Notes: a model not told the origin generated them from the sequence alone. 63,937 nucleotides of DNA from Chloroflexota bacterium (GCA_032124675.1 JAQBDA010000231.1:1-63937), one strand, 5' to 3'. Counted from the stretch's first letter, positions 6,706-21,835 are shown. A program made the numbers and translations.

Positions 6706-7348
6706 TATTTAAAACCTGATGGAATACCGGGCAGAGGTAATCCAGCTCCGACTGGCATGCAGCCGGTAAATCTACCTGCGGTGAGAACCCCAGCCGCCAC
6801 AGGGTCCGCAAGAGATGGCATAGGGGCAGCCCCATCACATTGGCGAAACATCCCTGCATTCCTTCCACCGGATAGAAGCCGGCGTGCTGGATCGCATACG
6901 CCCCGGCTTTATCCAGCGGGTCACCCGAGGCGATATATTCCAGCATCTCCCGGTCTGAATAATCCCGCATCGGAACGTCTGTGACACACAGATCTGTGAC
7001 CAACGCTCCCTCCGGCATTCGCATCACAGCCAGAGCGCTGTACACCTGGTGCACTTTTCCTCTCAATTGCCGGAGCATGGCCTCCGCTTCAGGCTCGTCG
7101 ACCGGTTTACCCAGGAGTTCATCCCCGTCAACAACGCACGTATCAGCGGCGATCACAACTGCTTCGCCGGCGATGAGGGCCGTGCTGGCACGCGCTTTGC
7201 TCTCCGCCAGGCGAAGCACATATTTATCTCCACTCTCACCCCGCTCGGGTCGTTCATCCACCTCAACCGGCAGCACAGAAAACGTCCAGCCACCGAGGGA
7301 TAACAGCTGCCTGCGGCGTGGCGAGCTGGAGGCCAGTACCAATTTCAC
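6695..7348 (-). CDS. maf: Maf-family nucleoside triphosphate pyrophosphatase
   Basis: LVLASSSPRRRQLL, IAADT, GKP, DKAGAYAIQ, NVMGLP. Confidence 0.93.
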   Translation of the reverse strand: MKLVLASSSPRRRQLLSLGGWTFSVLPVEVDERPERGESGDKYVLRLAESKARASTALIAGEAVVIAADTCVVDGDELLGKPVDEPEAEAMLRQLRGKVHQVYSALAVMRMPEGALVTDLCVTDVPMRDYSDREMLEYIASGDPLDKAGAYAIQHAGFYPVEGMQGCFANVMGLPLCHLLRTLWRLGFSPQVDLPAACQSELDYLCPVFHQVLNSAQ

Positions 7349-7363
7349 CCGCCGATTCTAACA
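7346..7363 (-). promoter_or_regulatory. Extended -10 promoter, leaderless-type, for maf
   Basis: Minus strand TGT-TAGAAT, then 6 nt, then the GTG start. Confidence 0.55.
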
Positions 7364-7469
7364 TATCTCCCTGGCTGATTCGTTAAAGGAGATGTAGAAT
7401 CAAATGACACTGCCATTAATTCAACAGGCGGGCTGACAGCTCGTGCATTATATTCCTGAGGAGGTCCAA

Positions 7470-8045
7470 GTGCAGGCACTGAAAGATCGCATCTTGTTGG
7501 AGGGGAAGAATCTTGGCAATGGGATCCTGAAAGTCGACGGCTTTGTCAACCACCAGGTTGACCCGGTCCTGATGGATGTGTGCGGGCAGGAATTAGCCCG
7601 CCGCTTCCGTGGTGTGGGGGCCACAAAAGTGCTTACAGCAGAGATATCCGGGATCGCACCAGCAGTCACCACCGCCCTGCACCTGGGTCTTCCGGTGGTC
7701 TACGCCCGCAAACACAAGCCGATCACCATGCCCGACCAGGTGTTCCTGACCCTGACTCCTTCTCACACCAAAGGCCGTACCGTTGAGCTGATCATCTCAC
7801 CCGAATACCTGGCGGGGGGTGAGCGGGTGCTGATCGTCGACGATTTCCTGGCTTCCGGCGCGACCATCCTGGGTCTGGTACGCCTGGCGCAGACTGCGGG
7901 GGCGAAAATCGTGGGCATTGGAGCGCTGATCGAGAAGAATTTCGAAGGTGGTCGTGCAGCGCTGGAACATCTCGGCATTCAGATCGAAGCGCTGGCGCGC
8001 ATTCAATCCATGCAGGGCGACGATATTTTGTTCTCTGAAGATTAG
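7470..8045 (+). CDS. xpt: Xanthine phosphoribosyltransferase
   Basis: ILKVDGFVNHQVDP, PRPP motif VLIVDDFLASG. Start moved from 7443 to the GTG at 7470, which follows a GAGGAGG SD. Confidence 0.9.
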   Translation: MQALKDRILLEGKNLGNGILKVDGFVNHQVDPVLMDVCGQELARRFRGVGATKVLTAEISGIAPAVTTALHLGLPVVYARKHKPITMPDQVFLTLTPSHTKGRTVELIISPEYLAGGERVLIVDDFLASGATILGLVRLAQTAGAKIVGIGALIEKNFEGGRAALEHLGIQIEALARIQSMQGDDILFSED

Positions 8046-8048
8046 CCT

Positions 8049-9608
8049 ATGCCCGATTCGATCGCCATCCTGGATTTCGGATCGCAGTATGGGCAGCTCA
8101 TCGCCCGTCGAGTGCGAGAAGCGGAAGTATACAGCGAGCTCTTCCCATGGGACGCACCTGCCAGCCAGGTGATGGCTCTGAGCCCGAAGGGTTTCATCCT
8201 CTCAGGCGGACCGGCGTCCGTCTACGAACCCGGCGCTCCGTACATCCCAGCCTACGTGCTGGATAGCGGCCTGCCGATACTCGGCATCTGCTACGGCATG
8301 CAGGCGATCACCCAGGCGCTAGGGGGGCGGGTCGCGCCTGCCGCAGAACGCGAGTACGGACCCGCCCATCTGGAGACCCTGCCCGCCAACCCACTGCTCA
8401 CGCCGGGCAGTCAGCGGGTATGGATGTCGCATGGTGACCGCATCGAGGTCGTTCCGCCCGGGTTCATCCCCCTGGCACAAAGTGATAACTCACCAATCGC
8501 GGCCATCGGCGACCTGCAGCGCCGGTACTACGGTTTGCAGTTCCACCCCGAAGTCCACCACACACCTGGCGGGTCAGAAATCCTGCGCCGCTATGTGGTT
8601 GATATCTGCCAGGCAATCCCTGGCTGGACGCCTGATTCGATCATCACAGAGAGCGTGGAGCGCGTGCGGAGGCAGGTTGGTAAAGATATGGTCATAGCGG
8701 CGGTCAGCGGGGGCGTGGACTCCAGCGTGGCAACCGCCATGGTGCAGCGCGCAGTGGGTGAGCAGCTTGTCGCAGTATTTGTAGATACCGGACTCCTGCG
8801 CCAGGGAGAAGTAGCCCAGGTACGCAAAGCGCTGCACGAAAACCTGGAGGTCGAGTTGGTTGTGGTGGATGCCGTTGGCGCCTTCATATCCGCCCTGAGC
8901 GGGGTGACCGACCCTGAGAGCAAGCGCCGTATTATCGGGGAACTGTTCATCCGCACTTTCGAGGCGCAAGCCAGACAGTTCGGAGAGCCGCGTTTCCTGG
9001 TGCAGGGCACGATCTACCCGGACGTGGTCGAATCCAGCGCACCCGACCGGGCGAAAGTGCACCGTATCAAGACCCACCACAATGTGGGTGGGCTGCCGGA
9101 AGAGATGCAGTTCGAGCTGGTCGAGCCGCTGCGCTATTTATTCAAGGATGAGGTACGGGGCGTGGGTGAGGCGCTGGGCTTACCCGCCAGCCTGGTGTGG
9201 CGCCAGCCGTTCCCCGGTCCGGGACTGGCCGTGCGCTGCCTGGGAGATGTGACCCAGGTGCGTCTGGATAGGCTGCGAGCAGCGGATGCTATTCTTACCA
9301 CTGAGCTTGCCTCCGCCGGGCTGCTGCGCATGGGTCACGAGGGTGACCGGCTTAGTGGTACGGCACAGGCCTTTGCAGTGCTGCTGCCTGTACGCTCGGT
9401 GGGTGTGATGGGCGATCAGCGCACTTACCAGGAAGCGGTCGTCTTGCGTGCCGTTACCACCGAAGACTTCATGACCGCCGATTGGGCGCGCCTGCCTCAC
9501 GATCTGCTGGCACGCATTGCCAACCGCATCGTCAATGAAGTGCCAGGAGTCAACCGGGTGGTCTATGATATCACCAGCAAGCCGCCCGGTACCATCGAGT
9601 GGGAATAA
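8049..9608 (+). CDS. guaA: GMP synthase (glutamine-hydrolysing)
   Basis: [36 protein letters not shown]-terminal KPPGTIEWE. Confidence 0.97.
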
Positions 9609-9628
9609 GCCCGAGTTTAGGACGAAAT

Positions 9629-11251
9629 TTACTCCCTTGCCCAATCCCAGACCCAATACAGCACAGCAGTGGCGACCCCCAAGCCGAGAGTCTTGAACAG
9701 ATCCACTACCTCCCAGGGCAGGTAAGTATATCGGCGCAGGTACCAGGGCAGGAACCAGGCCAGTATCAGAACCGAGCTGACCAGCGCCCGCCGCAGCCAG
9801 GGGTCATGCCGGGCTCTCTGGGCTGCCAGCACCCAGGCTGCCAGTGCCACCTGCAAGCCGGCAAATGCTTCCCTGTAGCGCGGGTTATCCCACTGGTCTC
9901 CGCCACCCCGGTAAGAGGCAATCAGAATACCCAGCCACACGACCAGGCTGATCCCCAGGACCAGACGGATATTCCCGGTGCCATCCTGGCTTCCGGCATC
10001 CACCCGTCGCATGGCGCGCAGCGGTGCGTAGATCAGGAAAACCAGCAGCAGCGTCCACCCGGCTGCACGCCAGATGGCAATCGCCCTCCAGATCAGGGCT
10101 CCGGTCGCATCGCTCAGCGCGGCTGGCAGGAATGGCTGGACGATCCCGTAAACCAGCAGCATGGGAGCATGTGCCCATTCCGGGGTACTGTCGAAGATCT
10201 TCTGCACCCAGCCTGAGGCGCGCTCGCTGAGGTAGGCCTGCCAATCGGCGGACTTCTTCACCCACCAGCCCACCAGCTCGACCGGATTTGACACTCCCTG
10301 CGGTGCGAAGCTGCCCCATGTGAACCACAGCCCGGCGAGGACCAATACTGCCAGCAGGGCCAATATCACCCACACCCGGCGCTGCCCCCTGAGCCCTCCC
10401 AGGAGAACGCCTGGACCTGCAGCTGCCGCCAGGATGACAAGCATCAACAGCAGCAGTCCAGCGAACGGTGGAGAGAAAGGCAGGCACAGCAGCAGTGCAG
10501 CAATGACCCAAAACAGGCTGCTCCACGAGCGTTCCTGCAGGTATTGCAAAAGGCCGTAAAACGCGGCTGCTGACAGGGTTATAGTAAAGGCTTCGCGCAT
10601 CTGTGAGCTTCCAATCAGCACCGCTTCGGGGTAGAAGACCAGCAGCCAGGCAGCGATGGCAGCCGCCTCGGCATTCCAGGCGCGCCTGGCAAACGCCCAG
10701 GTGAATAAGATTGCCAGAGATGAAAATGCGGCAGTCAGCGTGATGATCAGCAGGGGTGGGTGTGCCTCGCCCGGCAGGAAGCGGTACACAGCCGCACTCA
10801 TGAACAGCAGACCGCCGTACTGGTCATAGCGCCGGTAGCCGCCCTGAAAGGCTTTCAACAATGATTTCTCAGATTGAGAGAGGTCCCAGGCGCTACGATC
10901 CCGGTCATAGGCATCCGACATCACGTAGCCGTTCAGTTCTGCGGGAGAGCCATACCCCCAGACCGGCAGCCCAGTATGCCAGATGACTCCTATCCCCAGA
11001 CGCAGCAGGGCCGCTGCGATCAGCAATCCACCCAGCCAGCCTGGAGGAGTCTCTCTGCGCACCAACCACCATCCCACCCACAGCATTCCAGCACCCGCTG
11101 CCAGGACTGCCAGGAAAGGGAACCAGCCGGTGACGCTCATGTAACCGCTCGAGACCCAGGCCAGGCCAAATGCCAGCCCGGTCAACACAGCCAAGCAGGC
11201 TGCCAACAAGACCACCTTCGGTATGGGCTGCCTGTCCACTGGCTGACTCAC
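9629..11251 (-). CDS. Polytopic membrane protein, GT-C-like glycosyltransferase or polymerase candidate
   Basis: Many hydrophobic segments, a large loop with SDAYDRD, ArnT/PMT-like YP...S..MRE segment; lies within the glycan locus; GTGA-coupled to the upstream GT4. Confidence 0.55.
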   Translation of the reverse strand: MSQPVDRQPIPKVVLLAACLAVLTGLAFGLAWVSSGYMSVTGWFPFLAVLAAGAGMLWVGWWLVRRETPPGWLGGLLIAAALLRLGIGVIWHTGLPVWGYGSPAELNGYVMSDAYDRDRSAWDLSQSEKSLLKAFQGGYRRYDQYGGLLFMSAAVYRFLPGEAHPPLLIITLTAAFSSLAILFTWAFARRAWNAEAAAIAAWLLVFYPEAVLIGSSQMREAFTITLSAAAFYGLLQYLQERSWSSLFWVIAALLLCLPFSPPFAGLLLLMLVILAAAAGPGVLLGGLRGQRRVWVILALLAVLVLAGLWFTWGSFAPQGVSNPVELVGWWVKKSADWQAYLSERASGWVQKIFDSTPEWAHAPMLLVYGIVQPFLPAALSDATGALIWRAIAIWRAAGWTLLLVFLIYAPLRAMRRVDAGSQDGTGNIRLVLGISLVVWLGILIASYRGGGDQWDNPRYREAFAGLQVALAAWVLAAQRARHDPWLRRALVSSVLILAWFLPWYLRRYTYLPWEVVDLFKTLGLGVATAVLYWVWDWARE

Positions 11252-12414
11252 AGCATAATCCCTTCCAGTATCCGTTGAGCTCGAGATTCCCAGCTGTAAC
11301 GGTCGGCGTTCATCCGTGCCTCTCTGCCGAGGTCAGCTCGACGTTGGGCATCTTCGCTCAACCCTTGGATTGCTGTCACCCATGAGTTTGCATCATCCGG
11401 CGGCAGGAAGATGGCGAAATCCTGCTCCAGCACCTCCTTCAGAACCGGCAAATCGCTTGAGAGGATGGGCCGACCGCTCGCCATATACTCGAAGAGCTTC
11501 ATCGGGCTCAGGTAGCGGGCAATATCCCCGCCGGAAGAGGCAGCCACATGCCGCTGGTAGGGCATCAGCAGCACATCGCAGGCAGCCTGATAGACCGGCA
11601 GCTCCGCATTGGGAATAAAACCGGTCAGTATGACATTGCTCAGGCCTGCTTGCTGTGATTGCAACTGTAGTCGTTCGACATCTTGAGGCTCGCCACCAAC
11701 CAGCAAGAAGATCGCTTCCGGCAGGCCGGCAGCCATTGCGAGCATCAATTCCACCCCGCGGCCTCGATAGAGGTGCCCCGTATAACCAGCCACTATGACC
11801 TGGTCGCTCAGGCTAACTCCCAGCCCTTCCTCAATCGAACGCCGCGCCGCGTCCCTTCCCGGCAGATTGGTATAGCGTGATAAATCCACCCCATCCGGGG
11901 CAACAAGGCTGAACGGCTCATCAACGGGTGCGCTGAACTTATCTGCCAGGTCATAGAGCAGGCTGTGTGTGATCACTACCAGGCGCCGCTTCCCACGACC
12001 GCGCAGGAAAGCCCGGAACAGGAGCGGAGCCATTAATCCCTTGGGCAGATCGTGAACTTCATATATTGTGGGCACCCCCAGCATGCTGCCTATGGCAGCC
12101 GCCTGGGGCAGACGGGTGTAGAGCAGGTCAGCGTTCCAGCCGCGCGCCCAACCTACCGAGCGGAAGCCAAAATCATAGCGCCTAAGCTGCGGAATGGCAG
12201 TCAGCCAATCCACTGTAAACCGCTGCTTCAGCCCGTAGTGGTGAGCCAGCTCGCCCCATTGAGTCTCATCGACCGATCTGGCAGCACCCGCGGCGGGCAC
12301 AGCCAGACGCACCTCATGACCCAGTGCGGAGATCGCCTGGCACATCTTCATCACCTGCATGGTATTGGCACGCCGGGCCGGGATCTCACTGGGAGCGATA
12401 ACGGCAACGCGCAT
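11248..12414 (-). CDS. Glycosyltransferase family 4
   Basis: GT-B motifs (YTGHL..GRGV, SPMKLFEYMASGRPILSSD). Start moved from 12645 to the ATG at 12414, 2 nt after the flippase stop. Confidence 0.9.
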   Translation of the reverse strand: MRVAVIAPSEIPARRANTMQVMKMCQAISALGHEVRLAVPAAGAARSVDETQWGELAHHYGLKQRFTVDWLTAIPQLRRYDFGFRSVGWARGWNADLLYTRLPQAAAIGSMLGVPTIYEVHDLPKGLMAPLLFRAFLRGRGKRRLVVITHSLLYDLADKFSAPVDEPFSLVAPDGVDLSRYTNLPGRDAARRSIEEGLGVSLSDQVIVAGYTGHLYRGRGVELMLAMAAGLPEAIFLLVGGEPQDVERLQLQSQQAGLSNVILTGFIPNAELPVYQAACDVLLMPYQRHVAASSGGDIARYLSPMKLFEYMASGRPILSSDLPVLKEVLEQDFAIFLPPDDANSWVTAIQGLSEDAQRRADLGREARMNADRYSWESRAQRILEGIML

Positions 12415-12416
12415 TG

Positions 12417-13781
12417 CTACGCCTGCTCCGTCACCGGCAAGCGCGCTGCCAGGAGCAGCCTGACCTTGGCAAACGATATCAGCGAGGCAGCAATGTAAAA
12501 TGCCGATAGCAGAGCTGCACTCGCCAGATACCCGTAGCGCGGTACGAACAGCAGGATGCCAATCACCTTCGTTGCCGCCAGGATGACATTCAGTTTGGCC
12601 GGGAAATCCGGACGCCCGAGGGCCAGGAGTGCATTCCTGCGCCAATAGAAGATATTTGCAAATAGAAAGCCTGCCATCAATATCAGCAGCGCCGGATATG
12701 CCGGCAGGAACTCGGGGGTATATAAAAAGGAGATCAACGGACGGCCAAACACCCCCAAAACGAGCACTGCCGGCAGGGTATAGCTGGCTGCCAGAATCGA
12801 ACCCTGCCTCAGCACTGCGCGCAGGTCCTGCCAGTTTCCGCGCGCCGCCTGGCGGGTCAGCTCAGGATAAGTCGCCTGAGGCAGCGGGCTGACCGGCAGC
12901 TGGATGATATTTGCCAGGGAAATCGCCAGCTTGTAATACCCAGTCTCAACCGGACCGCGAAAGAAAGACACCCACAGTAGCTCGCTGTCTTTATTGATCA
13001 GGCTCAGCGAGGCGCTGATGTTGGTGTTCACTGCGAAATGCCTCATCTCACGCCATTCTGGCTTGAGGGTGGAAACCGGCGTGCGCCACCAGTCTCTCCC
13101 CCAGTTACGGTTGGCTTCCAATAATGCCCCCGAGCTGAGGCTCAATGCTCCAACGGCTTTGCCGCCCAGGTATGCGAGCAGCACCCCGACCATACCCCCA
13201 TCTGCCAGGTATACGATCGCGACCAGGCACAGCGTGACGATGCTCTGCACGAGCGAAAGGGCAGCCACATTGCGGAATCGATCGAATATTTGCAGCAGAC
13301 CCATCGAGCTCTCTGAGACCAGGTTTGCCAGCACGATCATGCCATAAAGGATAAACCAGCCTGTGGTGCTGGGGTCTTTGGCGAGGAAACGAGCTGCCAG
13401 TGGTGCGAGAGCGCAGAGCAGCCCAAACGCCAGGATGGAAGCCGCCATCTCTACCAATAAGGCGCTCTTGAATACAGTCGCTGCCCGCCTCTGGTCGCCT
13501 GCCTCGCTGTACTGGGCTACATATTTGATCACCAGCTCTCCCATGCGGAACGAGACCAGCTTGTTGATCACACTGGTAAACATGATAATCGCGCCAAGTA
13601 TGCCGTAGCTCTCTACCCCCAGCAGACGCGCGACCAGGATTCCCTGCAGCATGCTTAGGGCAGCCGACACCCCGGTCGCGCTGAACAAATACCCGGAATT
13701 CTTAACTACCCGGCGGGTCAACTCGTTTTGGAACAGGCGATGGAAAAGCCTGCGCACCCAGGAGTATATCGAGTGGATCAT
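12417..13781 (-). CDS. Wzx/MOP-family oligosaccharide flippase
   Basis: KNSGYL..A, LVARLLGVESYG, GYYKLA...P.....TYPEL pattern; many TM segments. Confidence 0.85.
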   Translation of the reverse strand: MIHSIYSWVRRLFHRLFQNELTRRVVKNSGYLFSATGVSAALSMLQGILVARLLGVESYGILGAIIMFTSVINKLVSFRMGELVIKYVAQYSEAGDQRRAATVFKSALLVEMAASILAFGLLCALAPLAARFLAKDPSTTGWFILYGMIVLANLVSESSMGLLQIFDRFRNVAALSLVQSIVTLCLVAIVYLADGGMVGVLLAYLGGKAVGALSLSSGALLEANRNWGRDWWRTPVSTLKPEWREMRHFAVNTNISASLSLINKDSELLWVSFFRGPVETGYYKLAISLANIIQLPVSPLPQATYPELTRQAARGNWQDLRAVLRQGSILAASYTLPAVLVLGVFGRPLISFLYTPEFLPAYPALLILMAGFLFANIFYWRRNALLALGRPDFPAKLNVILAATKVIGILLFVPRYGYLASAALLSAFYIAASLISFAKVRLLLAARLPVTEQA

Positions 13782-13835
13782 AGTGTGGCAGGACGGATTA
13801 GGGCGGCTTGCCGAGGTGCCTGAGCACCAGGCCGA

Positions 13836-14834
13836 TCAGCCGGTGTCAATCTGGCTGGCCCAGCTGCGTTCTTCATTGTACCAGGCTACCATCCTGGTCA
13901 TTCCTTCCAGCAGCGATACGCGCGGCTCCCAGCCCAACAGGCGTCCGGCTTTCTGGACGTCAGCCCAGTTCGCCAGCATATCAGCTGGATGTGCTGGTTG
14001 GGACACAACCCGTGCTTTTTGACCGATCAGCTCCTCCAGCATTTCAATGACCTGGTTTATCTTGACCATCTCATGTCCGCCGAGGTTGATAATCTCGTAC
14101 CCTAAGGGTCTCAAGCCAAGCACTGTGCCATTGGCAATATCGTCTACATAGGTAAACCCGCGCCTCTGTTCGCCATCTCCGTTCAATCGCAGCGCCTGCC
14201 CCTCGCTGATCCAACGGGTAAAGCGGAACATCGACATATCCGGTCGCCCGGCTGGACCATATACGGTGAAATAACGAAATATGGTCACATCCAGACCATT
14301 AAGATAGTGATAGACGTGGCAAAGCGCTTCTGCACTTTTCTTGCTGGCAGCATATGCCTGCAGGGGGTGGTCGCTGGGTGTATCTTCCGGCGTAGGCAAA
14401 GGAGCGTCATCGCCATAGACACTGGAGGTGGAGGCCAGAACGAACTTGGGCACAGCATTCCGTTTGCAGAACTCCAAGAGGTTGAGGGTTCCGGTAATAT
14501 TGGTGTCCAAGTAGACCCACGGATTCTCCACCGATTGGCGCACCCCGGCACGTGCAGCCAGGTTGATCACGGCCGAAAAGACCGGTCCGGCATCTTTCAC
14601 GCCGTAGGCATATTCCAATGAGTCAACACTTGAACGGTCGCTGATATCCAGGCGATGAAAATTGAAATTAGGCAGAGATTGCAGGCGCTGCAGGCGGTAT
14701 TCTTTCATGCGCACGTCGTAGGCATCGTTCATGTTATCGACGCCGACAACCGTATGCCCTTGCTCCACCAGCAGCTCAGCAACTCTGGAGGCAATAAAAC
14801 CGGCCGCGCCGGTCAGAAGGTAACGCGCCATCAA
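13836..14834 (-). CDS. NAD-dependent epimerase, UDP-hexuronate 4-epimerase-like
   Basis: TGAAGFIAS, NLAARAGVRQS, YAASK, FTVYGPAGRPDM. Confidence 0.88.
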   Translation of the reverse strand: MMARYLLTGAAGFIASRVAELLVEQGHTVVGVDNMNDAYDVRMKEYRLQRLQSLPNFNFHRLDISDRSSVDSLEYAYGVKDAGPVFSAVINLAARAGVRQSVENPWVYLDTNITGTLNLLEFCKRNAVPKFVLASTSSVYGDDAPLPTPEDTPSDHPLQAYAASKKSAEALCHVYHYLNGLDVTIFRYFTVYGPAGRPDMSMFRFTRWISEGQALRLNGDGEQRRGFTYVDDIANGTVLGLRPLGYEIINLGGHEMVKINQVIEMLEELIGQKARVVSQPAHPADMLANWADVQKAGRLLGWEPRVSLLEGMTRMVAWYNEERSWASQIDTG

Positions 14835-14892
14835 TTTCTCCTACCGCTGCCTAGAAAAGACTTGTTGAACGTTCGAATCACCGGTTTCATGA

Positions 14893-16218
14893 TCAGATGC
14901 GGAAGACCTTTGGATCCGCCCGACCGGCGCTGCCGAGTGCGTTTCGAGTGTCGACGATGAGTTTGGCCGCATCCTGTATCGCCGGGTAATCATAGCTGCT
15001 ATGGTCTGTCACAATAACCACACAATCTGCTTCCCGCGCGGCGGTTAACATATCTGGGGCGCTCTCCAGCCGCCACCCTTCATGATCCAGATGGGGGATA
15101 TAAGGGTCATGGTAAGAAACCCTGGCGCCTTTCTGCTTGAGCAAGCCGATCACATCCAATGCCGGCGATTCACGCAAGTCGTCGATATCCGGCTTATAAG
15201 CCACCCCCAGCACCATAATGCGGCTGCCTTTAATCGGCAGGCTGTTGTCATTCAAAACGTCCTGGATCTTGCCCACCACATAGCGCGGCATGCCGGTATT
15301 GATCTCTGATGCCAGCTCGATGAAACGAGCGGTGTAGTTCAGGGCGCGCAGCTTCCACGACAGGTACAGCGGGTCGATGGGGATGCAGTGCCCGCCCAGA
15401 CCCGGACCGGGGGTAAATTTCATAAATCCAAATGGTTTGGTCGCCGCGGCGTCGATCACCTCCCAGACGTCCACGCCCAGCCGGTCGCACATTAACGCCA
15501 TCTCGTTGACCAGACCGATGTTAATCATGCGGAATGTATTCTCCAGCAGCTTTGCCATCTCCGCCACCTCGGCAGAGGATACCGGCACGACAATCTGCAG
15601 TGCCTGAGAGTACCATTCAGTTGCCACGTCCGTGCAGTCAAGGGTGATGCCGCCGATCACCTTTGGAGTATTGAGCGTCGTCCAGTCCTGGCGACCGGGA
15701 TCGACGCGCTCTGGGGAGAACGCCAGAAAGAAATTCTCCCCGACTGTCAGTTCGTGGTTTTCCTCCAGCTTGGGAAGCAAGATCTCACGCGTTGTACCCG
15801 GATAGGTGGTTGACTCGAGCACGACGACCATATTGAGATGGATGTATTTCGCCAGCTCTTCAGCAGCACTCAGAATATAAGACAGGTCCGGATCACCTGT
15901 CTTACGTAAAGGCGTGGGCACGCAGATACTGACGGCATCCACATCCTTCAAGGCTGAGAAATCGCTGGTCGCGGTCAGCTTCCCGGAGGCTACCAGGCGC
16001 TTCACCTGCTCATCCGGTATATCCTGGATATAGCTCTGCCCGCGCATTATCGTATCGACTTTGACCGTATCCGGCTCGATGCCGGTTACGCGGAAACCCG
16101 TCTCGGCAAAAACGACTGCCAGCGGCAGACCAACATACCCAAGACCTAATACTGCCACAGAAGCAGTATGATCGCGGAACTGTTCAATTAGATTTGATTT
16201 TATAGATTGAGTGTTCAT
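14893..16218 (-). CDS. UDP-N-acetylhexosamine 6-dehydrogenase family (WecC/WbpA/TviB-like)
   Basis: GLGYVGLP, ICVPTP, LESTTYPGTT, FSPER, KLLENTFR, GPGLGGHCIPIDP. Start likely 16218 rather than 16248. Confidence 0.9.
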   Translation of the reverse strand: MNTQSIKSNLIEQFRDHTASVAVLGLGYVGLPLAVVFAETGFRVTGIEPDTVKVDTIMRGQSYIQDIPDEQVKRLVASGKLTATSDFSALKDVDAVSICVPTPLRKTGDPDLSYILSAAEELAKYIHLNMVVVLESTTYPGTTREILLPKLEENHELTVGENFFLAFSPERVDPGRQDWTTLNTPKVIGGITLDCTDVATEWYSQALQIVVPVSSAEVAEMAKLLENTFRMINIGLVNEMALMCDRLGVDVWEVIDAAATKPFGFMKFTPGPGLGGHCIPIDPLYLSWKLRALNYTARFIELASEINTGMPRYVVGKIQDVLNDNSLPIKGSRIMVLGVAYKPDIDDLRESPALDVIGLLKQKGARVSYHDPYIPHLDHEGWRLESAPDMLTAAREADCVVIVTDHSSYDYPAIQDAAKLIVDTRNALGSAGRADPKVFRI

Positions 16219-16240
16219 TGGAGACCTTTTACTCGCGGTT

Positions 16241-17131
16241 TTACCCATCGGTATATCCGTAATAATTGGATAGATCGTTCTGTATTTTATGATTCAAGCG
16301 TTGGATTTCAGCATCTGTAAGATAATCCCGATATCCCCCGACCTGCCCTTTTCTGGTTTTGTATGACTCCTGGTCCGATTTCACTGCCGGGTTGAGTATA
16401 CCATCTCGAAAACTCCCCTTCAGCTCCATCTTGCGCATGTTCTCGAAGGCTGCAAACTCAACGGCTTCATTAATAGTTTCAGCATCGATCATCGTTAATC
16501 CAAGGAAATCGAGCACCCGCCGCAGCTCGCCATACGGGTCCTGTTTCATATCCTCATAGCGCACCAGCAAGAACCCCTTCGGGATTTCACGGTTCTCCGC
16601 CCAGATATTGTAATAGCTCAAGATGGTATCGAAGCCTCCCTGCCGACGATCGATGAACTCTGATAGGTTCCCGCTGTACACAGCTTTACGAGACTCGTAA
16701 GGGTTGTCCCCGAACAGACCGCCCCTTTTCTTCATCTCGAAATAGCTGGAGACGATCACATCCCGCGGATCACGTACCAGGAAGATAATTTTTTTATGGC
16801 GAAATTTCTCTTTCGACCTTTCAAGCTCTTCCGGCTTTTTGAGCATGGGGCGGTCTTCGTGAACCACGGTGATCATCGGCAGCAGCGGGTGTGGCTTTGT
16901 ACTCCAGCGCAAGAACAAGATATCCTCATCCTGGGGAAGCTTGAAATACTGGCTGATCCCACGACCGGTCATCAACCGCAACCATGTCCGTCCGCACTTA
17001 GGATATGAAATGATATAAACATCAGTCTTGCGATGGGCATACCAGCGCCTCAGATCCCCAGGCACCAGAGATTTAGCCCGACTACGTACTACAACGGGTA
17101 ATTTAGCGTAGTATTTCCGCATTTTATTCAT
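16241..17131 (-). CDS. PAPS-dependent sulfotransferase
   Basis: 5'-PSB SYPKCGRTW, 3'-PB VRDPRDVIVSSY, VRYEDM, C-terminal RKGQVGGY. Confidence 0.88.
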   Translation of the reverse strand: MNKMRKYYAKLPVVVRSRAKSLVPGDLRRWYAHRKTDVYIISYPKCGRTWLRLMTGRGISQYFKLPQDEDILFLRWSTKPHPLLPMITVVHEDRPMLKKPEELERSKEKFRHKKIIFLVRDPRDVIVSSYFEMKKRGGLFGDNPYESRKAVYSGNLSEFIDRRQGGFDTILSYYNIWAENREIPKGFLLVRYEDMKQDPYGELRRVLDFLGLTMIDAETINEAVEFAAFENMRKMELKGSFRDGILNPAVKSDQESYKTRKGQVGGYRDYLTDAEIQRLNHKIQNDLSNYYGYTDG

Positions 17132-17172: not shown

Positions 17173-17799
17173 TCAGAACAGGTTGAGCTGCCGAGGATTA
17201 TCTTTATCAACCGGAGCCTGTTCCTGACTGCCGGCATTCTTATCAGCCCTAGCAATTAAATCCGGTATCTTTTTGAAGTCCTCTTCGATGGTCGACATCA
17301 ACGAGCGCTGGTGCAGTCCGGCGGCGGGATGGTACATCGCCACCACCAGTCTACCTCTTACCTGCATGGCTTTCCCGTGCACATCACTGATCTTCGCATT
17401 CGGCATGAAATACATTAACGAAAAACGTCCCAGCGTAACGATAACTTTAGGGTCAATGGCTTGAATCTGCCGCTCCAGGTACTCGCTGCAGGCAGAAATT
17501 TCATCCGCCTGGGGGTCACGGTTGCCGGGTGGTCTGCACTTCACCACATTGCCGATGAACACATCCGTGCGCTGCATTCCGATCTTGGCAAGCAAATCGT
17601 CCAGAACTTTTCCGGCTGCACCGACAAACGGTCTACCCTGCTCGTTTTCGTGAAAGCCTGGTCCCTCTCCGATGAACATTATCTCCGCATTGGACGGTCC
17701 CTCGCCCGGGACAGCGTTCTTACGCGAATGGTGCAGGTCACAATTCGTGCAGCCTGAGACCTGCGTGGCGATCTTTTCCAGCTCCTGCGCGGCATTCAT
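17173..17799 (-). CDS. Uracil-DNA glycosylase family 4
   Basis: CTNC, FIGEGPG..E...GRPFVG.AG, NVVKCRPP.NRDP, HPAA. Confidence 0.93.
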   Translation of the reverse strand: MNAAQELEKIATQVSGCTNCDLHHSRKNAVPGEGPSNAEIMFIGEGPGFHENEQGRPFVGAAGKVLDDLLAKIGMQRTDVFIGNVVKCRPPGNRDPQADEISACSEYLERQIQAIDPKVIVTLGRFSLMYFMPNAKISDVHGKAMQVRGRLVVAMYHPAAGLHQRSLMSTIEEDFKKIPDLIARADKNAGSQEQAPVDKDNPRQLNLF

Positions 17800-17810
17800 A
17801 ATTAACTCCT

Positions 17811-18413
17811 CTACTCCTCTGCGGCTGCGATTGGATCAGAACCTGCCAAGCCCAGCATTGCTCTTCGCCCAACACTCTGATCCAGCCATTCGATGTAGGT
17901 CTTATCCAACCCTTCTAAAGTCATGATTAAAGCATCTTCCTGGTTATCTTTGTAGTAACGCGGGCGACGACCTACGATATTAAAACCAAAACGCTGGTAC
18001 AGCCTTTGGGCGGCGGTGTTCTGTTCTCTCACTTCCAGAGTGGCAAGACGCGCTTCAAGCCGGAAAGCCTCTCGCATCACGCTAACCATCAACCGGGTGG
18101 CAATCCCCTGACCTCGAAACTCCGGGTGGACAGCGATAGAGGCAATATGGGTTTCATCAAGGATCATCCACACTACCACGACCCCAACAATCAAGCGGCT
18201 CTCATCTGGCAGCTCTATCTCCGCCACCCTTAGAAATGAACTCTGGTTCTCCAACAGCTCGTAGCGATATGCACTTTCAGGCCAGGGCAAGGAGAAGGAC
18301 TGGCGGTCAATAGTTAGCACCTGCTCCAGGTCATCTTGCCGCATAGTACGGATATGCAGCATGGCAAAAAGCTCCTCTGGCAAGGCGGCACGGATCGAAC
18401 TGCGGGCTTTCAT
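17811..18413 (-). CDS. rimI: Ribosomal protein S18 alanine N-acetyltransferase (GNAT)
   Basis: PW, DETHIASIAV...RGQGIA, LEVR..N..AQRLY..FGF, RPRYY; ATGA-coupled to tsaB. Confidence 0.88.
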   Translation of the reverse strand: MKARSSIRAALPEELFAMLHIRTMRQDDLEQVLTIDRQSFSLPWPESAYRYELLENQSSFLRVAEIELPDESRLIVGVVVVWMILDETHIASIAVHPEFRGQGIATRLMVSVMREAFRLEARLATLEVREQNTAAQRLYQRFGFNIVGRRPRYYKDNQEDALIMTLEGLDKTYIEWLDQSVGRRAMLGLAGSDPIAAAEE

Positions 18414-19081
18414 GGCTCTGGGATGGGTGTGTTGTAGTGAAGATAGATTGGAGCGAGAGACGCAGGATCATCTATCGCACCATTCTGCAGGCGGCGCCAT
18501 GCAATTTCTGCCAGGAAGGATGGTCTGCGGATTGAGTGCGCTGGAGAGGCAAGGATGACGTTCTTTCGTTTGCGCCTCAACAGGCGCTGCTCGTCTCCGG
18601 TGAGCTCTCCGCATATCAGTGTCGGGGACTGAATCTGCTGGCTAAGTTCCGCGGCGGTCATCACTTGGGGTGGAGCCAGAGGCTTCCAGTTTTTCTTCTC
18701 CCATTTGTAGGTTCCCACAGCCAGCCGTCCGCGCCCGGTGCGCAGCAAGGCTGCCATCGGCCCTTCGCGCGGCGGCTGGGCTGCAGCAAGTACATCCAGG
18801 GAGGGAACACCAATGATGGGGATATGGTGAACATAGACCAACCCTTTTGCCAGCGACAGGCCAATTCGCAGCCCGGTAAATGAGCCCGGACCCAGCGCAA
18901 CCGCCACGCTGCTCAACTGCTCGGCAGGAACATCACACTTTGCCAGCATATCGGCAATCGCAGGAGCCAGCTCGACAGTGTGGTAGTTCTGGCTGGTCCA
19001 TAAGGTTTCGCAAAGCACCTGTGCGCCGTCATACAGCGCAATACCGACCATACGGGTGGAGGTATCCAGAGCCAACAGCAT
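18410..19081 (-). CDS. tsaB: t6A biosynthesis protein TsaB
   Basis: LALDTST, VALGPGSFTGLRIG, C-terminal PIYL. Confidence 0.93.
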   Translation of the reverse strand: MLLALDTSTRMVGIALYDGAQVLCETLWTSQNYHTVELAPAIADMLAKCDVPAEQLSSVAVALGPGSFTGLRIGLSLAKGLVYVHHIPIIGVPSLDVLAAAQPPREGPMAALLRTGRGRLAVGTYKWEKKNWKPLAPPQVMTAAELSQQIQSPTLICGELTGDEQRLLRRKRKNVILASPAHSIRRPSFLAEIAWRRLQNGAIDDPASLAPIYLHYNTPIPEP

Positions 19082-19578
19082 CAGCGCACTCCGTACACCT
19101 GTCGGCGAATATCGGTCAGCAACTCTAAGTACCGTCTCCCAACTGCTGAGAACAGCATATCACGCTGCACGTCATCGATCCAGCGCATGCTCACCCAAAG
19201 GTGCTCTTTGGGTAAGGCAGGCTGGATGCGATTTGCCCATTCGATAACCAGAGGGCTTGTGTCCAACATCATTTCCAGATCAAGCTCGACAGCTTCCATT
19301 GGCCCACCCAGGCGATAAGCATCCAGGTGGTACAGGGTCTGTTGATACGGACCGCGGTAAACATTTACCAGCACAAACGATGGGCTGGAAACTGAATCCA
19401 GCGAGCCCCACCCGGCAGCTATCCCTTGGACAAAGGTCGTTTTGCCAGCTCCCAGCTCTCCAGCCAGGCAGATCGTATCTCCCGCATGCAGCAGACCACC
19501 CAGGCGCATCCCTACCCGCCTGGTTTGTTCCGGGCTGCGGCTGATAAACTCCATCGAGTTCGCATTAAAGACAGGCAT
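19081..19578 (-). CDS. tsaE: t6A biosynthesis ATPase TsaE
   Basis: GELGAGKTT Walker A, SPSF, HLDAYRL, IEWA. Confidence 0.93.
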   Translation of the reverse strand: MPVFNANSMEFISRSPEQTRRVGMRLGGLLHAGDTICLAGELGAGKTTFVQGIAAGWGSLDSVSSPSFVLVNVYRGPYQQTLYHLDAYRLGGPMEAVELDLEMMLDTSPLVIEWANRIQPALPKEHLWVSMRWIDDVQRDMLFSAVGRRYLELLTDIRRQVYGVR

Positions 19579-19660
19579 ATCAACAAAAATTATACAGCCT
19601 AATAGCCGTTCTGTGAGAGTTTACCTGGAGCAATATCCTGCGGAAGATGGCAGAGAATAC

Positions 19661-21835
19661 TCAATTCCTGATCTCCAGCCTGGCAAGTGAGGCTGCCACA
19701 CGCTTCAGACCAATTTCCTCGAAGAAGATATCTACGATCTCATCATCATCCTGGATGCGGCTGTTGAGCACCATGCCTTCTTCCCAGACCGGATGGAAGA
19801 CACGCATCCCGGGGTGGTAGCGGCGTTCGATCAGCGGTGCTGGATCGTCCTGTGGTTTTTGCCAGCGCTCCGAGGCAGTGCTACCTACAGCTGCCCTGCC
19901 ACCCAGACGACTTACCTGTACATCATCCAGCAGATCAGCAGGGATATCGTCCAGGAAGCGGGAGGGCTCAACCGGTTCGGTATACCCATAGGAGCTGCGG
20001 CTTTGAGGATATACCAGGTACAGGCGATCTTTGGCACGCGTAATCCCCACGTAGAACAAGCGCCTTTCTTCCTGCATCTCTTCGGGTTCTTCAAATGACC
20101 GGCTGTGCGGCAGCACCCCATCGACCAGCCCGACAAGAAAAACGCTCCCAAACTCCAACCCTTTGGCAGCATGCAGTGTGAGCAGGGTTGGCACATTGGC
20201 GCTGGCCTCGATGGTATCTTGATCCGATACAAGGGCTACCCGCTCTAGGAACGCGTCCAGCCCCTGCTCCTGAAATTCTGCCGCTAACCTGCGCAGCTCG
20301 AACACATTCTCCCAGCGTTCACGACCCTCCTCACTGCCGTCATCCAGATAGGACTGGTAATCGATATCCTCCAGGATTAAATCCATCAGGACTATGGGCG
20401 GCAGCTGGTCCACTTCTTCCCGCCAGCGCCTGAGATGGGAACCAAAAGAGACCAGGACCGCGGCCGCACGAGCCGGAAAATGATCCGGTTTCACAGGTTG
20501 GTCATTATTACCCATACCCAGCAGCGCTTCCCCGGTAGATTTACCGGTTTGCTGAGCATAGGTACGCAAAGCCAATAAGGTTTTATTCCCAATCCCGCGC
20601 GCCGGGGTATTGATGATGCGCGTCAGGCTGATATCGTCATTCGGGTTGCGCACCAGACGCAAATAGGCAATCACGTCCTTGACCTCTCGCCGTCCATAGA
20701 AACGCTGTGCTCCAACCAGCTTGTAGGGCAGCCCGGCATGTAAGAATGCCTCTTCCAGCAAGCGGGATTGGGCATTGGTGCGGTACATCACTGCAAAATC
20801 ACCCGGCTGCGCCTGCCCACGCCCCACCAGATCTGCAATCGTATCCACCACATAGGAGGCTTCGAGACGATCGTCAAAAGTCTCCATCAGGATCGGGCGC
20901 CGGCCCGTCCCGCGGTCGGTGAATAATTTCTTGCGCACTCGATGCGGGTGGCGGTCGATCACCGCCATAGCGGTATCCAGGATTATCTGGGTAGAGCGGT
21001 AATTCTGTTCCAGCACGATGACCTGGGTATCAGGAAAATCCTCTTCCAACCGCAGCAGGTTGCGATAATCTGCCCCGCGCCAGCCATAGATCGATTGGTC
21101 GGTGTCCCCAACCACAAAAAAATTGCGGTGCAGCGAGACCATATGCCTGAGCAGGGTATACTGGGCCAGATTGGTATCTTGGAATTCGTCGACAAGGACG
21201 TGCTCATACCGGCGGGCGTATTTCTCGCGCACCGGGGGAGTATTTTCCAGCAGGAATGCCGTCCACAGCAGCAAATCATCGAAATCCAGTGCATTGCTCG
21301 CCAAAAGCAGCTCCTGGTAGCGGCGGTAAACCCGTGCAATTACCTCATCCCGGTAGGTCTGCACCGGGAAGTCATCGGGCAGAAGCAGTTCGTTCTTGGC
21401 ATTGGAGATCGCACCGTGCACAGCATGCGGGCGGTAGCGTTTCTCATCCAGATTAAGGTCATCCAACGCCCGGCGGACGACACTGAGCTGGTCGTCGGAA
21501 TCGAATATGACGAAGTTCGATTCAAAGGGGAGATGACCCGCCTCGCGGCGCAGGATACGCGCGCAGGTGGCATGGAACGTACCCAGGGTCAATCCATGAG
21601 TGCTCTCCCCCAGAAGCTCGGACACTCGGCTTTCCATCTCGCGGGCGGCCTTATTGGTGAATGTTACCGCCATGATCTGGTAAGGGCGCACTGCCATGGC
21701 ACCGATCAGGTATGCGATACGGTGGGTTAGCACCCTGGTTTTGCCAGAACCCGGCCCTGCCATCACCAGCACCGGTCCCAACCCGGCCATCACCGCTTGC
21801 CGCTGTGGATCGTTGAGGTCTTGAAGGAAGTCCAT
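19661..21835 (-). CDS. pcrA: UvrD/PcrA ATP-dependent DNA helicase
   Basis: AGPGSGKT, TFTNKAA, VDEFQDTN, VGD.DQSIYGWRGA, LEQNYRS, HAAKGLEF, EERRLFYVGITRA; Tudor-like C-terminus. Confidence 0.95.
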   Translation of the reverse strand: MDFLQDLNDPQRQAVMAGLGPVLVMAGPGSGKTRVLTHRIAYLIGAMAVRPYQIMAVTFTNKAAREMESRVSELLGESTHGLTLGTFHATCARILRREAGHLPFESNFVIFDSDDQLSVVRRALDDLNLDEKRYRPHAVHGAISNAKNELLLPDDFPVQTYRDEVIARVYRRYQELLLASNALDFDDLLLWTAFLLENTPPVREKYARRYEHVLVDEFQDTNLAQYTLLRHMVSLHRNFFVVGDTDQSIYGWRGADYRNLLRLEEDFPDTQVIVLEQNYRSTQIILDTAMAVIDRHPHRVRKKLFTDRGTGRRPILMETFDDRLEASYVVDTIADLVGRGQAQPGDFAVMYRTNAQSRLLEEAFLHAGLPYKLVGAQRFYGRREVKDVIAYLRLVRNPNDDISLTRIINTPARGIGNKTLLALRTYAQQTGKSTGEALLGMGNNDQPVKPDHFPARAAAVLVSFGSHLRRWREEVDQLPPIVLMDLILEDIDYQSYLDDGSEEGRERWENVFELRRLAAEFQEQGLDAFLERVALVSDQDTIEASANVPTLLTLHAAKGLEFGSVFLVGLVDGVLPHSRSFEEPEEMQEERRLFYVGITRAKDRLYLVYPQSRSSYGYTEPVEPSRFLDDIPADLLDDVQVSRLGGRAAVGSTASERWQKPQDDPAPLIERRYHPGMRVFHPVWEEGMVLNSRIQDDDEIVDIFFEEIGLKRVAASLARLEIRN

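Follow-up and report, generated by a model that had tools for sequence, protein, structure and literature searches.

A conserved operon, probably for an envelope glycan, with a sulfotransferase gene in an Anaerolineae-type Chloroflexota bacterium

Sulfated glycans are considered rare in bacteria, and to our knowledge none has been described in the Chloroflexota. The subject of this report is a six-gene operon at positions 9629-17131 of a stretch of 63,937 nucleotides from a Chloroflexota bacterium (GCA_032124675.1, JAQBDA010000231.1:1-63937), the whole of which is called the window. Its products are a sulfotransferase, a nucleotide-sugar 6-dehydrogenase, a UDP-uronate 4-epimerase, a flippase, a glycosyltransferase of family 4 (GT4) and a membrane glycosyltransferase of the GT-C fold. 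On balance, the operon seems to add a sulfated acidic sugar to the cell envelope by way of a lipid carrier. The source is an Anaerolineae-type metagenome-assembled genome (MAG) of 4.85 Mb and 92% completeness from an uncultured sediment bacterium, whose sequence was found again in marine, estuarine and aquatic sediment metagenomes.

Related sulfated and uronate-containing glycan systems

The N-glycosylation route of Halobacterium salinarum appears to be the closest working analogue of the operon. There a tetrasaccharide on dolichol phosphate is built with the glycosyltransferases Agl25-28, and its uronates receive sulfate from Agl30 and Agl31; the flippase is Agl29, and proteins acquire the glycan through the GT-C enzyme AglB (PMC11980604). 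The likeness would lie in the combination of a short, uronate-rich glycan linked to a lipid phosphate, dedicated sulfotransferases, a flippase and GT-C transfer to the envelope. The halobacterial system is however archaeal and dolichol-based, and the 540-residue GT-C protein of the operon has no counterpart to the large, soluble peptide-binding domain at the C-terminus of AglB.

According to a recent paper only cyanobacteria make sulfated polysaccharides (PMC8205485), yet sulfated lipopolysaccharide (LPS) and capsular K polysaccharide (KPS) are known from rhizobia (PMC5498481). Synechan of Synechocystis PCC 6803, encoded by xss, resembles the present case in that sulfotransferases lie within a Wzx-type bacterial glycan cluster, but it is a polymer of the Wzx/Wzy type with polysaccharide co-polymerase (PCP) and outer membrane polysaccharide export (OPX) proteins and eight glycosyltransferases, and has neither uronate module nor GT-C (PMC8205485). 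A plasmid search at E ≤ 1e-5 gave no match to the Synechocystis xss sulfotransferases (pSYSM). In S. meliloti the Clr-regulated cluster on pSymB contains the putative sulfotransferases SMb21237, SMb21243 and SMb21249, and the authors predict a sulfated surface polysaccharide (PMC5498481). Within about 20 kb this pSymB cluster holds a homolog of the operon sulfotransferase (30% identity over 86% of the length; equated with SMb21249 from neighbouring genes only), a dehydrogenase 45% identical to that of the operon, GT4s and a MOP-type flippase. Unlike the operon, it is large, lies on an accessory replicon, includes a primer, a Wzy-like protein and a chain-length determinant, and is without GT-C.

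A further likeness is that to the Vi antigen, in which TviB and TviC oxidise C6 and then epimerise C4 to give a galacturonate-type nucleotide sugar, and the first-pass annotation of the window had leaned on this pair for its reading of the dehydrogenase and epimerase. The equivalence was not borne out, the equivalog scores being far under their cut-offs (TviB 197.5 versus 592 bits, TviC 85.8 versus 760) and the epimerase belonging with the UDP-glucuronate (UDP-GlcA) 4-epimerases and not with the TviC/WbpP type. The Vi antigen is exported by an ABC transporter. Periplasmic uronate transfer of the Rhizobium RgtA-E/ArnT type and the mycobacterial lipoglycan route from PimA to GT-C enzymes are also comparable, as a nucleotide uronate or a GT4-made lipid intermediate there feeds an outer-face GT-C, but both use a GT2 polyprenyl-phosphate sugar synthase, absent from the operon, and neither involves sulfation.

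Identity of the six gene products

The sulfotransferase gene lies at 16241..17131 on the minus strand, as do the other five, and encodes a 296-residue, cytosolic-SULT-like enzyme of the type that uses 3'-phosphoadenosine 5'-phosphosulfate (PAPS). Its match to PF00685 (Sulfotransfer_1) scored 105.2 bits against a cut-off of 22 and covers residues 36-288. PAPS sulfotransferases were recognised by a PKxGxTW loop, an RxxxDxxxS 3'-phosphate motif and a catalytic histidine; the protein has the 5'-phosphosulfate loop PK45CGRTW, His91, the 3'-phosphate motif R120DPRDVIVS128 and a K258-x-R260 block, with conservation of at least 90-95% among 53 homologs. An N-terminal extension of 37 residues, basic and with a net charge of +3 to +9, is common to all operon-linked sulfotransferases and would suit work at a membrane surface. 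The gene has a GC content of 0.487 (0.58 at third codon positions) and its neighbours about 0.55-0.62. Recent horizontal transfer was considered as the cause and rejected, since the gene is vertically retained across 11 genera, and the low GC is thus not a mark of recent transfer. Two of the 30 orthologs have one in-frame TAA each (G433:C14:34569-35447 and G313:C11:41967-42752), reflecting either incipient loss or assembly error.

The same genome encodes, on contig C315, a 591-residue fusion of PUA_2, ATP-sulfurylase and adenosine 5'-phosphosulfate (APS) kinase domains, a Sat-CysC PAPS synthase. APS kinase was found in 29 of 30 sulfotransferase-positive genomes, the lone exception being 53% complete, and in 72 of 107 sulfotransferase-negative ones. 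Seven Sulfotransfer_1 genes are present in the genome, six besides the operon copy. Three of them stand with the PAPS synthase in a second, larger glycan locus at about 2-26 kb of contig C315, which also holds a GT2, a PMT_2-type GT-C, a Capsule_synth protein and a NeuB-type nonulosonate synthase with a fused TIM-barrel domain; the canonical UDP-glucose dehydrogenase of the genome is encoded about 40 kb beyond it.

The 451-residue dehydrogenase (14893..16248) is of the GGHCI type and the third paralog of its kind in the genome, with 443 bits to TIGR03026, the active-site motif GLGGHCIPIDP and Cys288. It scored below every NCBIfam equivalog cut-off: besides TviB, this applies to WecC (268.9 versus 459), archaeal UDP-N-acetylmannosamine (UDP-ManNAc) dehydrogenase (283 versus 750) and TuaD (176 versus 700). 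In the PDB it matches the UDP-ManNAc dehydrogenases 4r16 and Cap5O best, with about 229 bits, and UDP-glucose dehydrogenases with about 150. Assignment as WecC was rejected on the sub-cut-off score and on a better paralog of 452.8 bits adjoining WecB on contig C93, and assignment as UDP-glucose 6-dehydrogenase on the TuaD score and on the motif GGHCIPID in place of GGxCFxKD; a TuaD-like UDP-glucose dehydrogenase with 553 bits and the motif GGSCFPKD is encoded on contig C315. Since better paralogs for both roles exist elsewhere in the genome, the operon enzyme would have a third specificity, and the most economical guess is that it is probably a UDP-N-acetylhexosamine (UDP-HexNAc) 6-dehydrogenase acting on UDP-GlcNAc or UDP-GalNAc.

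The 332-residue epimerase (13836..14834) belongs to the short-chain dehydrogenases/reductases of the UGAepi family (PF01370, 179 bits) with the glycine motif G9AAGFI and a YxxxK motif at Y161/K165. Its best PDB matches are 5u4q (260 bits), the Bacillus cereus UDP-GlcA 4-epimerase 6zl6 (182 bits) and MoeE5, and WbpP and WbgU score about 108 bits. In the B. cereus enzyme (BcUGAepi) the carboxylate-binding and catalytic residues are T126, S127, S128, T178, R185, Y149 and K153 (PMC12338863), and all seven are kept, as T136, S137, S138, T190, R197, Y161 and K165 in the aligned operon protein. The sequence thereby places the enzyme in the UDP-glucuronate 4-epimerase family, and its description as uronate-type in the first-pass annotation is well founded. 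Its substrate may bear a 2-hydroxyl or a 2-N-acetyl group.

The flippase (12417..13781, 454 residues) belongs to the MOP/PST family and is Wzx-like, matching PF01943 with 91.9 bits and PF13440 with 60 bits, and MatE and MurJ weakly. A hydropathy scan gave at least nine hydrophobic segments, and no solved relative was detectable by sequence. The GT4 (11248..12414, 388 residues) is a retaining glycosyltransferase with about 60 bits to PF13692 and PF00534; it is distantly PimA-like, the phosphatidylinositol mannosyltransferases PimA and PimB being its only full-length solved relatives (E about 1e-7), and also matches TuaH and TuaC weakly.

The last gene (9629..11251) encodes a polytopic protein of 540 residues that has no Pfam hit even at E ≤ 1 and no NCBIfam hit, and a profile of its orthologs found nothing among all PDB sequences even at E ≤ 10. 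It was fold comparison that identified it as a stand-alone GT-C-fold glycosyltransferase. An AlphaFold2 model was built from 13 orthologs, with a predicted local distance difference test (pLDDT) score of 78.9 and a predicted template-modelling (pTM) score of 0.83. With Foldseek the 27 best matches, and about 35 among the 50 listed, were GT-C enzymes, those 27 having probabilities of 0.91-1.0 and TM-scores of 0.31-0.44. The top matches, at probability 1.0 and TM 0.39-0.44, include AglB, the foremost of all, STT3, PglB, PMT, ArnT, ALG9/12 and Emb, and Emb/Aft are also among the best 27. Some homologs at 50-78% identity carry the PF13231 PMT_2 domain. The first large loop, which follows the third helix (residues 99-165) and is predicted to face outward, holds three aspartates that do not vary among the 13 orthologs, D113, D118 and D143. 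On the strength of the GT-C fold, the all-helical model without a soluble domain and the invariant aspartates of this loop, the protein is modelled as an outer-face transferase using a lipid-phosphate-linked donor. An unannotated polytopic protein of 486 residues stands ahead of the GT-C gene in distant relatives (L070, 10766-12226), and both proteins have a short DNPR(F/Y) motif at the same relative C-terminal position. When the GT-C profile was compared by hhalign with the extra polytopic proteins of relatives (486 residues in L070, 692 residues in L006), nothing was significant, the DNPR motif alone being shared, at probability 0.3.

The six genes are co-directional and tightly packed. The sulfotransferase stop lies over the dehydrogenase start with an overlap of 8 nt, GT4 and GT-C overlap by 4 nt (GTGA), flippase and GT4 are 2 nt apart and the remaining gaps are 41-58 nt. 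For GT4 a start giving an open reading frame (ORF) of 465 residues was rejected in favour of the ATG at 12414, 2 nt past the flippase stop. Domain matches, fold and junctions thus uphold both the six gene identities and the close minus-strand packing given by the first-pass annotation. In a promoter and terminator scan, sites were no more frequent than in shuffled sequence.

Conservation and the tie between sulfotransferase and glycan genes

The order uvrD-tsaE-tsaB-rimI-UDG-sulfotransferase-dehydrogenase-epimerase-flippase-GT4-GT-C (UDG, uracil-DNA glycosylase) was found in full, as far as the contig reaches, in 19 other species-level genomes. As these have diverged to protein identities of 47-93%, the six-gene arrangement is far from chance. 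The UDG run anchors the operon throughout the relatives, synteny with it being kept in loci L002-L020, L034 and L062-L070. An intact sulfotransferase stands beside the operon in 28 of the 30 genomes with an ortholog, down to 55% identity.

Of 137 genomes in the GTDB family, 127 have the GT-C gene (45 of the 46 high-quality ones), and so do eight of nine sampled genomes from sister families of the order, at 35-44% identity; GT4 was confirmed next to it in two of the five sister-family loci examined. In 291 genomes belonging to other orders of the class it was not found. The sulfotransferase ortholog occurs in 30 of the 137 family genomes and 11 of 55 genera. Its presence is phylogenetically clustered, with at least two changes on a five-marker tree, which none of 500 shuffles reached. 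In nine of ten sampled sulfotransferase-negative relatives the operon order is kept, with UDG directly followed by the dehydrogenase, and the tenth locus (L061) ends early. From the distribution of GT-C against that of the sulfotransferase, and from the synteny, the cassette from dehydrogenase to GT-C is therefore a core envelope operon, order-wide and set among housekeeping genes. The sulfotransferase came later, as a lineage-specific add-on at the operon head in a subclade of one family, and neither point had been noted in the first-pass annotation. In other words, this widespread sediment lineage has its sulfotransferase in a core envelope operon that is conserved, and not in a variable capsule island, and the order-wide operon with its stand-alone GT-C represents undescribed envelope biology of the Chloroflexota. 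The roughly 30 genomes with and 100 without sulfotransferase in an otherwise equal operon form a natural comparison set for the role of sulfation, in which possible gains in charge, metal binding, salinity tolerance or phage evasion can be compared.

In five of the ten sulfotransferase-negative relatives (L061-L064 and L066; for example L063, 9785-10942) a second GT4 stands between flippase and conserved GT4; it is absent from all 19 loci with the sulfotransferase at the operon head that reach that point. This may represent a swap of a sugar branch for sulfate; L065 and L067, which have neither second GT4 nor sulfotransferase, count against it.

The sulfotransferase was also met beside glycan genes in other arrangements. 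In two loci, L025 and L034, the same operon has a divergent sulfotransferase (42-45% identity) in inverted orientation, with GT-C on one side and GT4 on the other. These two form a separate clade nearest Planctomycetota (92 in the Shimodaira-Hasegawa-like approximate likelihood ratio test, SH-aLRT), but independent acquisition was not established, as the approximately unbiased (AU) test does not reject a single Anaerolineae clade (p = 0.136). A Planctomycetaceae MAG (L026) has a 46%-identical sulfotransferase (9902-10783) that starts 4 nt before the stop of a 720-residue PMT/PMT_2 GT-C (7743-9905), an independent coupling of the two genes in another phylum. In Embleya sp. NBC_00896 (NZ_CP108777.1, about 934.9-951.6 kb; L086) a 41.5%-identical sulfotransferase (8001-8732) directly follows a GT4 (6790-7926) 35% identical to that of the operon; Embleya, a cultured actinomycete, may offer a tractable model for the GT4-sulfotransferase pair. 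The next closest homologs outside Anaerolineae are cyanobacterial (45-50% identity) and located in multi-sulfotransferase arrays. Most of the distant homologs, from cyanobacteria, Sumerlaeota and Pirellulales, are without operon partners and occur in such arrays or in mixed contexts. Since the sulfotransferase recurs beside GT4, GT-C or dehydrogenase in L025 and L034, Planctomycetaceae, Embleya and S. meliloti, these pairings favour as its acceptor a sugar put in place by the partner GT4.

The operons of L034 (1-9929) and L025 (66-4720) are extended past GT-C by a GDP-mannose 4,6-dehydratase, a GT2 and a further GT4, and that of L034 also includes an amidotransferase resembling asparagine synthase; enzymes of this type are often associated with uronamide formation. 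In sister families (L080 and L083), too, GT-C is succeeded by this dehydratase and GT2.

Proposed route, alternatives and surroundings of the operon

The best reading of the glycan is a short, lipid-linked one containing galacturonate or N-acetylgalacturonate and sulfated in the cytoplasm. The dehydrogenase would oxidise C6 of a UDP-hexose, most likely UDP-GlcNAc and less so UDP-Glc, and inversion of C4 by the epimerase would yield UDP-GalNAcA (or UDP-GalA). The PimA-like GT4, working at the inner membrane face, would then put the uronate on a lipid-linked acceptor primed by a phosphoglycosyltransferase encoded elsewhere; the candidate genes on other contigs are four for Bac_transf and three for Glycos_transf_4. 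The sulfotransferase, a soluble enzyme with a basic N-terminus, would O-sulfate the lipid-linked sugar, using PAPS from the Sat-CysC synthase. The MOP flippase would carry the product across the membrane, where GT-C would move the short glycan off its carrier and onto an acceptor of the envelope, for which a protein, a wall polymer and a lipoglycan are all conceivable. Gene identities, catalytic motifs, GT-C fold, PAPS capacity, synteny and distribution are observed, and on them the substrates, the sequence of the steps and the acceptors of sulfate and glycan are proposed. Sulfation would be the later addition to this route and all other steps its order-wide core. A short glycan moved en bloc is likelier than a long polymer because there is one GT4 and a terminal GT-C; alternatively, a primer bound to the carrier would receive a single uronate. 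With its six genes, the set is small enough for a sulfated uronate glycan to be rebuilt in a heterologous host.

Several observations weigh against this route. The operon holds no primer, and the carrier could be undecaprenyl diphosphate, undecaprenyl phosphate or a membrane lipid. The dehydrogenase is of the HexNAc type and the epimerase of the GlcA type, so the two point to differing sugar classes. The solved relatives nearest to the sulfotransferase, namely cytosolic SULTs from plants and animals together with the glycopeptide sulfotransferases Teg12/14 and StaL, use small molecules, and a sugar acceptor is for that reason not readable from its sequence alone. The Embleya homolog stands in a natural-product-like cluster with YcaO, methyltransferase and PhyH-dioxygenase genes, the product of which may be a glycosylated, sulfated peptide. 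For GT-C the TM-scores are only moderate, and neither subfamily nor acceptor can be read from the fold. Contigs of an estuary metatranscriptome, 95-99% identical, cross the dehydrogenase-epimerase and flippase-GT4 junctions, but their depth is flat and they also span the convergent guaA/GT-C junction, so that transcription is not separable from DNA carry-over.

The first-pass annotation had proposed a sulfated, glycosaminoglycan-like polymer. Among the six products and 15 scanned flanking ORFs no Wzy polymerase, co-polymerase, exporter or initiating phosphoglycosyltransferase was found, nor in the operon any chain-length regulator or glycosaminoglycan synthase of GT2/GT45 type, the one GT4 being the only cytoplasmic glycosyltransferase and the last gene a GT-C. 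Neither 'polymer' nor 'glycosaminoglycan-like' is accordingly supported, and a short sulfated surface glycan is probably made instead; the PAPS synthase and the retained synteny that the same annotation had counted on were both found. An anionic wall or capsular polymer is still conceivable, in which polymerisation of the unit beyond the membrane gives a long sulfated chain resembling teichuronic acid or extracellular polysaccharide (EPS), with GT-C as polymerase, ligase or both. A MOP flippase and a polytopic outer-face enzyme provide the minimal Wzx/Wzy logic, the weak TuaH and TuaC similarity of the GT4 would fit, some relatives have added a second GT-C, GT2s or polytopic proteins of no known family, and the three sulfotransferases and PAPS synthase of the second locus show that the genome invests in sulfated glycans. 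We nevertheless regard such a polymer as unlikely: one GT4 permits an extension by at most one sugar, no O-antigen ligase is among the six genes either, the GT-C fold is that of class-A transferases (OST, PMT, ArnT, ALG) and not SEDS- or Wzy-like, and the conserved housekeeping site is unlike the variable islands of capsules and O-antigens. It is rather improbable that the operon instead makes a sulfoglycolipid or lipoglycan in the manner of the path from phosphatidylinositol mannosides to lipomannan and lipoarabinomannan, with GT4 glycosylating a phospholipid or diacylglycerol, the sulfotransferase sulfating the product, the flippase exposing it and GT-C extending it with polyprenyl-phosphate sugars. 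An operon without primer would then be expected, GT2 genes sized like polyprenyl-phosphate sugar synthases flank GT-C in some relatives, the conserved basic N-terminus of the sulfotransferase fits action at a membrane surface, and PimA and PimB are the only full-length solved relatives of the GT4. That similarity is however weak and generic for GT4, no GT2 adjoins GT-C in this genome, and MOP flippases are best known for substrates linked to polyprenyl diphosphate.

The sulfotransferase could also be unrelated to the operon, sulfating a small metabolite, or a nucleotide sugar pool that serves another pathway, after landing in a permissive intergenic site between UDG and dehydrogenase. Its cytosolic-SULT-like subgroup, its lower GC, its absence from about 80% of genomes with the same operon and the six other Sulfotransfer_1 genes are in line with this. 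The 8-nt overlap with the dehydrogenase, the retention of the intact gene beside the operon, the divergent second copy at another position within the same operon in L025 and L034, and independent pairings with GT4, GT-C or dehydrogenase in three other phyla make it very doubtful. A wider idea, also unlikely to be right, is that the cassette makes a near-essential and so far undescribed anionic envelope component, a uronate lipoglycan or wall glycopolymer, that takes the role of teichoic or teichuronic acid in these filamentous bacteria, one subclade having raised its negative charge by recruiting the sulfotransferase. If true, this would make it the first sulfated polymer of a bacterial core envelope, the EPS of cyanobacteria and the LPS and KPS of rhizobia aside.

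Around the operon, the co-directional housekeeping run UDG4-rimI-tsaB-tsaE-uvrD lies upstream at 17173..21835 (minus strand), the family-4 UDG matching TIGR00758 with 200 bits, and at the downstream end GT-C is convergent with guaA. The other scanned neighbours are housekeeping or regulatory genes with no glycan link and encode a PBP2-type transpeptidase, Maf, RsgA, a sigma factor and sensor kinases. Near the operon and adjoining Maf, a 750-residue class-B penicillin-binding protein with an N-terminal MecA_N/NTF2-like domain is encoded at 4453-6705 on the minus strand.

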